Below, piece after piece: positions 53,646 through 61,376 of a stretch of DNA of 64,000 nucleotides (the first letter of the stretch is position 1; every line of letters starts with the position of its first letter). The stretch covers positions 576,001 to 640,000 of the forward strand of contig CAVVUN010000002.1 in NCBI GenBank assembly GCA_963751455.1. Reading direction: 5' to 3'. A program made the position numbers and the translations under genes. Below the pieces are notes generated by a model, which ran no database searches, was not told where the DNA came from, and saw only the letters and a list, made by a program, of their open reading frames with translations. The stretch comes from Nitrospirota bacterium. GTDB taxonomy: Bacteria; Nitrospirota; UBA9217.

Positions 53646-53739
53646 GCAATGCCTCGCAGTGAAGGTATATCATTAATGATAGCACGAGCGGATTTAGTCA
53701 GTTACAAGTCAAATTCTTCTCAAAATGGGGAGAATATTT

Positions 53740-53834
53740 ACCGCGAAGGCGCGAAGAACGCGAAGGACATCAAAACAAAGAGGATTTTGTTTTAATTCAA
53801 GACTTGCAAGGTTTTCTTCGCGACCTTCGCGCCT
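53740..53834. repeat. Inverted pair of triple CGCGAAG units; the second copy is split by the IS110 element
   Basis: accgcgaaggcgcgaagaacgcgaag (53740-53765) faces cttcgcgaccttcgcgcCT (53816-53834) plus tcgcggt (55466-55472). Confidence 0.85.
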
Positions 53835-53914
53835 GGTTTATTGCTGTCAAGTATTTTTATTCTTTTTTATGTTTTATCTTTCTTCAAGCTTTGGCTTAAA
53901 AGAATGACTTCGAT

Positions 53915-54080
53915 CTTAGGTGCGGCACCTCGCCCAATCCTGGTATTAGAGGGTCTCGACAGAGCCCAAACCTTGCTTTATTGGGACTAAGGTGCAAGCG
54001 GGGAGTTATGTAAGCTTTGCGAGAAGGTCGGCATAGCCGCCTTAGATGGCGCGAACGATAATCTCCCCCGCCTGCACGCT
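53915..54080 (-). ncRNA. Candidate IS110 bridge/seek RNA downstream of the recombinase (target-binding and donor-binding loops)
   Basis: Two stem / internal-loop / hairpin modules (53992-54077 and 53933-53985). Their loop segments match the reconstructed target and donor sites. Confidence 0.75.
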
Positions 54081-54092
54081 AAAACATTTGAG

Positions 54093-55352
54093 TTACGCAG
54101 CCTCGAGCTGAAACGATTTTTTTATGTAATCTTCTTCGTAAACGCTATGATCACGTACGACGGCAAATATGATTCCGAGAAGCTTCCGCGCGACAGCGAT
54201 CAGCGCTTTGGTCTTGATCATTCCACGATCGAGATACCGCCGATACTGTTGGTGCATTACGCCGTCTTTGCGAACGGTATTGAGCGCGGCAAAGTACAGA
54301 AGTTTCCGGAGCAGCGGCCGGCCTCGCTTGGAAATGCGGCGCGTCCCTCTATGCTTGCCCGAGCTGATCTCAAAGAGGTCAAAACCGGCGAGCTTCATGA
54401 TCTCCCCGAGGGTGCTGAACTTTCGGAAATCGCCCACTTCGCCGATGAGACCGGCAGCGGTGACCTCGCCGATCCCTTTGAACGAAAGAATCGAGTTGCT
54501 GTAGGGAATCTGCTGAAGTTGAAGAACCATCTCCGCTTCCAGTTCGGAGTTAAATTGCTCAGAGACCTCCATAGCGGCAAGAATCGCTCGGATCTCTCGG
54601 AGGATGCTGGCTTGGCCTTCGGTTACGCCTACGGACGATTCTGCGGCCTCGTAGAGCGCTTGGGCTCGGTCTGCTCCAAGCTTGCCCCGGCTCACCTTTC
54701 TGATCGTCTGGGTGAGCTTGTCAACGCATTGCGCCGCAATCTCCTTTGGTGTCGGGCAGTGTTTCAAAAGATGTTTCGCAGTTGCCGTCTTTACATCTTT
54801 CATTACCTGCTTAAACTCTGGAAAAATGATCGCGATCAAGCCCTGAAGCTGATTCACCAATGCCGTGTGACGCTGGGTGCTCCTCTCTCTGGCCTGGGTC
54901 AGCCTCCGAAGCTCGGCGGCGGGACCTTCCGGGATCACCACGCTCAGGGCATGTCCAAGCTCTATGATGTCGGCAATGACCTTGGGGTCTTTCTGGTCCG
55001 TCTTGTTCGGAGAATTGCCCTGGAGCTCTTTAACTCTCTTGGTGTGCATGGGATTTACCTGTACAAGTCGCACGTCTCGCGCCCGCATGAAATGCACCAG
55101 AGCCTCGGCGTACGACCCGGTGGATTCGTATCCAAAGACAATTTCGTCGAGATTATGGATTTCCTTCGCCCGGGATATCCGCTGCCAGAATTCGTGGAAA
55201 CCCGACCCGTTGTTCGAGAAAGGAAAACTCTTCACGTCGGTTCCATCCGGACAGCGCCAGTACCCGTAATGTTTGTCTTTGCCCATATCAGCGGTCACGA
55301 TAAGAGATTTTCCATTGACTACTCTAAACTTTTTTGTTTTAATCTTCTTCAA
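54093..55352 (-). CDS. IS110-family DEDD recombinase/transposase
   Basis: ADMGKDKH, YESTGSY, VNP, KTDQKD, GIG...A..LIGE.GD..KF, SSGK...ISKRG...LR..LY, AVARKL. TTG start at 55352 follows an AGAGG RBS. Confidence 0.95.
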   Translation of the reverse strand: MKKIKTKKFRVVNGKSLIVTADMGKDKHYGYWRCPDGTDVKSFPFSNNGSGFHEFWQRISRAKEIHNLDEIVFGYESTGSYAEALVHFMRARDVRLVQVNPMHTKRVKELQGNSPNKTDQKDPKVIADIIELGHALSVVIPEGPAAELRRLTQARERSTQRHTALVNQLQGLIAIIFPEFKQVMKDVKTATAKHLLKHCPTPKEIAAQCVDKLTQTIRKVSRGKLGADRAQALYEAAESSVGVTEGQASILREIRAILAAMEVSEQFNSELEAEMVLQLQQIPYSNSILSFKGIGEVTAAGLIGEVGDFRKFSTLGEIMKLAGFDLFEISSGKHRGTRRISKRGRPLLRKLLYFAALNTVRKDGVMHQQYRRYLDRGMIKTKALIAVARKLLGIIFAVVRDHSVYEEDYIKKSFQLEAA

Positions 55353-55560
55353 GGCTATACCTCTTTCTTCGGTTTGGATTACCAACTTGCCAGCTGGTTT
55401 CAAATCGAGAAAGAGTATAGCCTTTTTTAAGTAAGGCTCAATTGCTTTCTGCAATATAGCAAGCTTCGCGGTTCCAAGGTTTTAGTTCCGGATTTCCCGG
55501 GTTAGGATCAGAAGCGCTTCTTAATCCCCGCAAAAGAGTCTTTGCCGCATGCTATTTGGA

Positions 55561-60806: not shown

Positions 60807-61292
60807 CTACATGATGCTATACAAAATACCATTCAGGTCACAACCGAGTGACCCGCTGTATGAGTAATCCCGCCAGTTAAGTACCAAACCTTTTCTGACC
60901 GGATTGTCGAGAATATACCTTATGTGTACTTCTAATTTATCGTCGGACCGTATGATATGATCATAAAAATCTTTTTGCCATTTTAGCTCAGGCCTGTGCG
61001 ACGATAACCAGAACCCGGTTTGTTGTTTATAATTTATTGCCGTTTTCCATAGATCAGAAGCATCTGATTGACCACTTATCAGTAAGTGCAGATGATCCGG
61101 CATGAAACAATAAACCGGCACGATGCAATTTTCTTTCTCTATAGTCTTTCTGAGAATATCTTTGAACACGCTTACGATATTTGCCTCAGCGAAAGACGGC
61201 TTTTTATCCTTCATGCATAATGTGAATGATACGGACACCGGTCCCTTATACAATTCCCTGGGCAACCTATGATTTTTTTCCCGTATCGACAT
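60807..61292 (-). CDS. REP-associated tyrosine transposase (RAYT; Y1 HUH family)
   Basis: RL....Y, F.T.C, YCFMPDHLHLL (HUH), WQ..FYDHIIR, YI..NPV.KGLV. Flanked by REPs. Confidence 0.92.
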   Translation of the reverse strand: MSIREKNHRLPRELYKGPVSVSFTLCMKDKKPSFAEANIVSVFKDILRKTIEKENCIVPVYCFMPDHLHLLISGQSDASDLWKTAINYKQQTGFWLSSHRPELKWQKDFYDHIIRSDDKLEVHIRYILDNPVRKGLVLNWRDYSYSGSLGCDLNGILYSIM

Positions 61293-61305
61293 ATTTATTA
61301 TGAGG

Positions 61306-61376
61306 CGCAGGCTGAAGCCTGCGGCTACCAAGCATGTGTCTTCCGTGAACAAACGCAGGCTAAAGCCTGCGGCTAC
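61306..61376 (-). repeat. Two GTAG-type REPs
   Basis: cgcaggctgaagcctgcggctac (61306-61328) and cgcaggctaaagcctgcggctac (61354-61376), inverted relative to the 60772 copy. Confidence 0.85.

Follow-up and report, generated by a model that had tools for sequence, protein, structure and literature searches.

A near-consensus junction promoter and a leader hairpin predicted to hide the ribosome site in an IS110-family element of a Nitrospirota bacterium

Described relatives and family placement

Promoters that form when the two ends of an IS110 or IS1111 element are joined in a circle are established (PMC11187229, PMC12288879, PMC13626964), as the initial annotation of the locus studied here had stated, and all comparisons with these and the other cited papers refer to the accessible parts of each source. 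The precedent is not universal: ISPpu9, an IS110 element with an AG core, makes no junction promoter according to the accessible part of PMC12288879. ISPpu9 uses a REP target, comparable to the REP-like repeat here, has the same AG core and buries its ribosome site in a leader structure, as is predicted for the present element (PMC8450116, PMC12288879); in ISPpu9 this structure is opened by a separate antisense RNA, whereas the candidate opener here is the element's own junction or right end. ISPpu10 likewise uses a REP target and combines a weak native promoter with a strong junction promoter (PMC12288879). In IS200, a cis hairpin likewise hides the transposase ribosome site, although the transposase is unrelated and no junction-dependent release features in the accessible part of PMC4513863.

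Among elements with guide RNAs, IS621 (PMC11208160, PMC13626964) resembles the present one in its DEDD and Tnp20 domains, its core of two bases, its sigma-70 promoter at the junction, its two-loop RNA and its short sub-terminal repeat, and its REP-type target is comparable to the REP-like repeat here, but it is distant in sequence (E 1.8e-9), carries its RNA in the left end and has a core reading CT on the gene strand, and the accessible parts of both papers note neither a leader hairpin nor a junction complement. CazIS110-1 (10.1101/2025.10.25.684509) is likened here by features and not by kinship: it is an IS110 element with target and donor loops that forms a circle, and its single-stranded circle bears on one of the alternative readings discussed below. 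With the ISEc11/IS1111 group and its seekRNA (PMC11187229), the element has in common a long downstream non-coding region, the guide order and a junction promoter; the same source describes IS110-type elements with a downstream non-coding region and gives the IS1111-type order as top-strand guide before bottom-strand guide. In contrast to IS1111 proteins of 330–350 aa with a GL-P----S(t)G motif and sub-terminal inverted repeats of 7–17 bp (PMC11208160), we found 419 aa, no GL-P and repeats of 4–6 bp, and the structured 95-nt leader is a further difference from ISEc11/IS1111. Because protein length, serine motif and short inverted repeat fit the IS110 subgroup, the element is here assigned, by these sequence features, to the IS110 family, as IS1111-like in layout but outside the IS1111 group.

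The element, its target and its bridge RNA

The window is a stretch of 64,000 nucleotides of a Nitrospirota genome, in which the following features were located (plus or minus strand as given).

53833..55465, minus strand: IS110-family insertion sequence, 1,633 bp including both AG cores; circle 1,631 bp
53833..53834, minus strand: right core dinucleotide AG
55464..55465, minus strand: left core dinucleotide AG
53736..53832, no strand assigned: right part of an interrupted palindromic host repeat (REP-like target), limits approximate
55466..55508, no strand assigned: left part of the interrupted host repeat
54093..55352, minus strand: recombinase gene, 419 aa, TTG start at 55352; D22, E76, D119, D122 and S331-G332 present
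53915..54085, minus strand: predicted bridge RNA with approximate limits, the target-binding loop preceding the donor-binding loop; fold z −2.2
54048..54055, minus strand: target guide for the top strand right of the core, 8/8 complementary to this flank
54015..54022, minus strand: target guide for left flank and core, 6/8 identical, one wobble, one mismatch
53972..53977, minus strand: donor guide for the first six bases of the left end, changing with the donor in relatives
53940..53944, minus strand: donor guide that matches the core together with the final right-end bases

The element is present once in the host genome and sits in a repeat with palindromic arms and many genomic copies, extragenic at this insertion, with an oxidase-like gene block on one side and a cytochrome bd operon on the other. 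Rejoining the flanks yielded a sequence that occurs as an uninterrupted repeat with a single AG at C9:64511-64627 (95% over 120 nt); the core was spanned by 57 of the 114 matches to this rebuilt site, and the 15-nt target site was found empty and exact 24 times in the host genome. In eight groups of multi-copy relatives, identity begins and ends at the same two AG cores, bar a few shared target bases. Near-identical elements (95–99%) were recovered from at least seven other data sets, where contigs break off at these ends as well, and in runs X4 and X8 such contigs begin at 53833 and end at 55466. The boundaries proposed in the initial annotation were borne out by the empty repeat, the eight relative groups and the co-variation of guides with flanks (see below), and a 1,633-bp IS110-family element has been inserted at the AG core of a dispersed host repeat. 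No terminal inverted repeats were present among the 25 longest repeat pairs listed. An X4 joint skipping 53769-55464 was rejected as an element joint, being off the boundary and probably derived from another organism's repeat. About 5 kb from the interrupted repeat, the window also encodes a REP-associated tyrosine transposase (60807-61352, minus strand; NF047646, 88 bits, cut-off 80), and a perfect 14-bp palindrome at 53667-53680, preceding the start of cytochrome bd subunit I by around 20 nt, is a possible regulator site.

The recombinase matches NF033542 with 210 bits (cut-off 140) and combines an N-terminal DEDD domain (PF01548, 93 bits) with a C-terminal Tnp20 domain (PF02371, 78 bits); in the motif before the catalytic serine, leucine occupies the proline position. 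Its true start is most likely the TTG at 55352, judged from homologues of about 420 aa that have a start codon at the same place, and the longer 453-aa reading frame was rejected as starting too early for these homologues. The initial annotation's suggestion of an intact element appears likely to hold given the open frame, the DEDD and serine residues and both ends, while activity is a prediction from sequence. At residue 181 (54810-54812, minus strand), a lysine replaces a leucine that is near-invariant in relatives.

A first search with the single protein returned one weak locus, and a viral protein search gave no match for the recombinase. The set of relatives comprised 180 loci, 179 with a protein match (108 clusters), and close relatives were found mostly in Nitrospirota and deltaproteobacterial genomes. 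Both end anchors were present in 142 loci (84 clusters); the left was missing in 14 loci and the right in 29, many but not all of them at contig ends. The bridge RNA lies in a right end of about 260 nt, the left end measuring about 113 nt, and its consensus from 98 sequences has two loops and 53 pairs, 40 of which show two-sided change as a raw count without shuffle control. Rfam returned only a sub-threshold match (E 0.12). Terminators were detected in none of 88 right-end tails by a scan that found only 2 in 200 host gene ends and is hence powerless.

Target guides could be parsed in 158 of the 166 loci having a donor-loop anchor, the top-strand guide coming first and the bottom-strand guide second, with 47 and 58 distinct guides across the clade. 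Taking one locus per 90% cluster, left guides matched their own flanks at 4.41 of 6 positions against 2.21 after permutation (85 clusters) and right guides at 5.04 of 7 against 2.73 (79 clusters), and in neither case did any of 5000 permutations score as high. In 17 of 79 clusters (e.g. L005, L025, L062, L125), the right target guide fitted best one base farther from the core, and both registers were found inside one cluster, which suggests that a one-base slip of this guide may be tolerated. Among the relatives L021-L180, one short-period host repeat family serves as target for many, and a second, purine-rich repeat for others; from their sequences, we read these targets as probable natural reprogramming of guides among dispersed repeats.

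The promoter at the joined ends

53845..53850, minus strand: −35 hexamer TTGACA of the junction promoter, with an A-tract just upstream
55453..55461, minus strand: extended −10 of the junction promoter (TG, one base, TATATT); predicted start near 55446, from spacing
53839..53844, minus strand: right arm of a short sub-terminal inverted repeat, partner 55451-55456

The initial annotation had described a near-consensus sigma-70 promoter formed only at the circle junction, and its minus-strand letters and coordinates proved correct throughout: TTGACA at 53850-53845, the AG once, and TATATT at 55458-55453. The 17-nt spacer is composed of 53844-53835 (10 nt), AG (2 nt) and 55463-55459 (5 nt), and the −10 is extended by a TG one base before TATATT, with 11 of 12 consensus positions matched overall. 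The joined ends form what is, by its letters, a near-consensus sigma-70 promoter, and the chance of such a box pair near the ends was roughly estimated at 4e-6 from genome hexamer frequencies, allowing any placement and both strands. The host possesses RpoD (TIGR02393 over cut-off), and promoter spacings in its genome number 373 at 17 nt versus 39–95 at 10–15 and 19–25 nt. Six further long sigma-70-type genes besides RpoD (G000 C1, C10, C15) were noted, four of them just under the RpoS cut-off. The annotated gcaata/tattgc repeat is present, but it is short and not kept in full in relatives, being a perfect 6 bp in 9 of 82 clusters, with a median of 4 bp and never 7 bp or more.

In the integrated state, the left-end −10 finds a partner with only 0–2 of 6 matches and the right-end −35 likewise 0–2 of 6 (spacers 15–19), and a promoter scan of the integrated element reported none at either junction half. 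A hybrid promoter that would use the right-end −35 to read outward into the cytochrome bd genes was discarded, having 0–2 of 6 matches.

Conservation was assessed with a left anchor that imposed the TG and a right anchor independent of the −35. Across the 84 clusters, the hexamer at the 17-nt position is TTGACA in 44, TTGACT in 35, a near-match in 3 and unrelated in 2, so that 79 clusters carry TTGACA or TTGACT at this spacing; the −10 reads TATATT in 74, another TAnnnT in 9 and is mis-anchored in 1, its variation being confined to tolerant middle positions. After removal of the mis-anchored loci L011, L024 and L128, 82 clusters remained, in 80–82 of which the first four −35 bases, which lie outside the inverted repeat and the donor guides, are invariant while their neighbours vary. 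The geometry was kept in all 11 parsed sister and distant elements (36–51% identity), with six other donor types and one TG core; these were detected with promoter-like patterns and therefore speak for compatibility and not for frequency.

The junction search in sequence data that had been proposed succeeded for a relative and not for the element itself. A search of genome contigs revealed an exact junction with a single AG between bridge RNA and recombinase start in the sister-clade locus L274, a Thermodesulfobacteriota contig (L274:1-590) in which the recombinase gene is cut off after about 105 codons; a circle, a tandem copy and an assembly loop could each account for it. In the 7 contig sets covering the present element, no end-to-end joint of it was found, and none of 270 retrieved loci showed the junction pattern. 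Of four matches to that pattern in genome contigs, three lacked an IS110 gene, as did the single viral match (L315:1801-1825), which we attribute to chance in a region rich in near-consensus sigma-70 promoters.

By analogy with the described elements, the junction promoter is very probably active on the circle, where it would likely transcribe the recombinase gene and the bridge RNA. As such it is ordinary, being already known in kind for IS110/IS1111. Now that this promoter is supported in an environmental clade whose guides, cores and naturally reprogrammed targets are mapped, the set should be useful for mining bridge recombinases.

A leader hairpin and an internal promoter-like site

55408..55422, minus strand: anti-Shine-Dalgarno (anti-SD) arm of the leader hairpin
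55353..55368, minus strand: Shine-Dalgarno arm, ending at the start codon
55414..55441, minus strand: internal promoter-like site TTGAGC, 16 nt, TATACT, 9/12 consensus

The transcript predicted from the junction promoter begins with a 95-nt leader that folds as one hairpin, in which 55422-55408 pairs with 55368-55353. Its stability is about −36 kcal/mol (z −6.1 to −7.1; no shuffle as stable). Over 88 distinct leaders, 93.9% of cells are paired (13 two-sided), a level reached by none of 500 shuffles, although shuffle counts overstate significance because the relatives are kin; slid-window controls pair 41–64%, and one hairpin pair is open in 30 of the 88. Opening the start region would cost 15.9 kcal/mol here versus a host median of 6.5; among 300 host starts sampled from 875, only 8 are equally closed, and the values of 41 of 69 clade members lie above the 95th percentile of the host. 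Distant relatives fold similar ribosome-site hairpins from unrelated sequence. A small terminator-like hairpin at 55419-55438 (minus strand) overlaps the start of the anti-SD arm and competes in folding.

Leader repression of this kind is known for ISPpu9 (PMC8450116) and IS200 (PMC4513863). These folding models make it probable that the hairpin represses translation of RNA begun at the junction promoter or in host DNA, and the junction transcript may therefore serve mainly for the bridge RNA. In IS10 and IS50, protection against read-through is achieved in that RNA begun outside carries the blocking arm; unlike the present element, both have unrelated transposases and no junction-dependent release. 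The balance of recombinase and bridge RNA and the quiet integrated state become testable by simple reporters, and native leaders may suppress recombinase expression in engineered constructs.

The claim that a promoter exists only at the junction stands for the near-consensus promoter itself but probably not for all transcription of the element, as an internal site was located at 55441-55414. Its −10 lies inside the anti-SD arm with the predicted start at the arm's 3' end, so RNA begun there would omit the arm and be translatable. One of 40 shuffles scored as well as this site. This arrangement is found again in clades of distinct sequence, L202 showing a perfect consensus; within the main clade the score is modest (mean 8.0 versus 7.0 shuffled, 5 of 79 reaching 9.5), and a T[AT]G start at a spacer of 16–18 nt occurs in 48 of 78. 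Whether this weak promoter supplies a basal translatable RNA from the integrated element is, on these sequence data, evenly balanced. CTATACT corresponds to an RpoS −10 motif in the accessible part of PMC11784136, and an RpoS reading of the internal −10 is only a lead, with four host sigma factors at 322–346 bits versus a cut-off of 378.7.

A complement to the element's own junction and competing readings

55381..55390, minus strand: motif at the leader hairpin apex that can pair with the circle junction across the core, one of the pairs being G-U

Read as a reverse complement, the ten bases at the hairpin apex match the junction, core included. In 82 clusters, the best match of the leader to its own junction averaged 10.8 of 13 versus 8.7 for shuffled leaders, and in 79 clusters the leader-junction duplex averaged −16.5 versus −8.1 kcal/mol for shuffled junctions. 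A preference for the own junction was observed in two clades, and a sister clade with a different right end carries a matching, different complement (two elements scored, amounting to one evolutionary contrast). With the RNA truncated just ahead of the ribosome-site arm, pairing of the boundary into the loop occurs in 56 of 68 circle contexts versus 13 of 68 flank contexts, the pairing for this element being 0.81 in the circle versus 0.09 in the flank. It is the conserved, predicted translational lock together with the conserved complement to the own junction that goes beyond the known junction promoter; neither these nor the internal promoter-like site figured in the initial annotation. A search of mainly open-access literature, by titles, abstract openings and accessible passages, returned no paper describing a transposase leader that is opened by a junction; supplementary tables may already list this clade.

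None of the nine distant elements has the loop complement. Among 14 distinct sister and distant elements, which represent about seven lineages (17 further loci being unparseable), 9 instead carry an exact complement of 8–13 nt to the anti-SD arm in the right end, compared with coding-window maxima of 6–8 nt, and for 8 of the 14 the start region opens at a lower energy with the right end than with any of 25 shuffles. In four of four elements at 28–29% identity, right-end complementarity did not exceed background.

For the main clade, opening gains over shuffled right ends averaged about 1.7 kcal/mol (lower in 53 of 79, higher in 7 of 79). In this copy, the ribosome site stays closed at equilibrium in junction-crossing RNA (15.9 vs 17.5 kcal/mol; 16.9 vs 18.1 kcal/mol for shuffled right ends). 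Sequestration of the anti-SD arm by circle RNA found no support in the main clade, at 0.68 in the circle prefix versus 0.64 and 0.65. As neither equilibrium opening nor extra arm sequestration was found, any effect here must be kinetic or topological. One such course, tentatively proposed from these models, is that RNA polymerase would round the 1.63-kb circle and make junction RNA first, which would then pair with the leader loop and disfavour the hairpin. That a large clade of long IS110 elements senses its own circular state in RNA, with only circle-crossing RNA unlocking the message, is possible but somewhat doubtful, although translation gated by the circle is the explanation of the junction complement that we favour. 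We hold with similarly less than even confidence that the junction switches on both transcription and translation and that lineages achieve this with different sequences, namely loop complement or anti-anti-SD. If true, such a circle-sensing translation switch would be a new form of insertion-sequence control and a compact riboregulator. As a whole, the account of a mapped IS110 element with a junction promoter and a leader hairpin that blocks the message, unless the RNA has started inside or crossed the junction, is likely, slightly less so than repression by the hairpin taken separately.

The junction copy in the leader might instead work in DNA, either by folding back within a single-stranded top-strand circle to replace the absent bottom strand of the donor site, or as a double-stranded decoy bound by the recombinase-RNA complex, dampening transcription. 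The best-conserved letters (columns 104–109) complement the right-end side and the core, where the left donor guide reads, and G-T wobble would suit single-stranded DNA as well as RNA; CazIS110-1 moreover excises a top-strand circle, and at the LD-RT joint dsDNA integrates about 20-fold better than top-strand DNA (accessible part of 10.1101/2025.10.25.684509). A decoy read by the right donor guide fits poorly with the departures from the complement, which on the sense strand are mostly of the G-U type (97, or 33 once the core column is left out, vs 8 of the A-C type and 43 transversions in 889 cells), and the complement of distant clades falls on the anti-SD arm, far from donor sites, which points to translation control. 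We consider a role in DNA unlikely, though to be taken seriously.

No less and no more improbable is that the design is real for the clade and this copy a stalled relic that no longer circularises: the single copy faces 24 exact empty 15-nt sites, and the lysine at residue 181 and the one mismatch of the left target guide would agree with decay, but the reading frame is uninterrupted, neither the catalytic residues nor the two ends show damage, and contigs of the 95–99% identical elements in at least seven other data sets break off at the same ends.

Opening through the junction is also favoured over long-range 5'-3' or trans pairing of the right end with the leader, which would tie translation to finished bridge RNA and not to circularisation. 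This alternative gains from the distant clades, in which the complement lies wholly in the right end, 35–78 nt from the core, from the sister clade, whose complement is mostly right-end sequence, and from ISPpu9, whose leader is opened by a separate RNA (PMC8450116). We nevertheless regard it as rather improbable, since the complement of this clade spans both core sides, the last 12 nt, when joined to the left end, account for the folding gain, and a hairpin of about −36 kcal/mol would already have formed before a 3' end could invade it.

That the ends are kept only for recognition by recombinase and guides, the promoter being incidental and expression coming from the internal site or host read-through, is very improbable: most of the extended −10 and two bases of the −35 are indeed also covered by the donor guide or the inverted repeat, host genes upstream are oriented towards the element, and read-through alone supports IS621 excision (PMC13626964), but this leaves unexplained the 17-nt spacing, the A-tract and the first four bases of the −35, which persist across donor types, as well as the restriction of −10 variation to tolerant middle positions.

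At 53865-53888, the right end also resembles the region of the recombinase start codon (55330-55353), with 83% agreement over 24 nt, possibly a right-end partner for the leader and possibly an A-rich chance resemblance.
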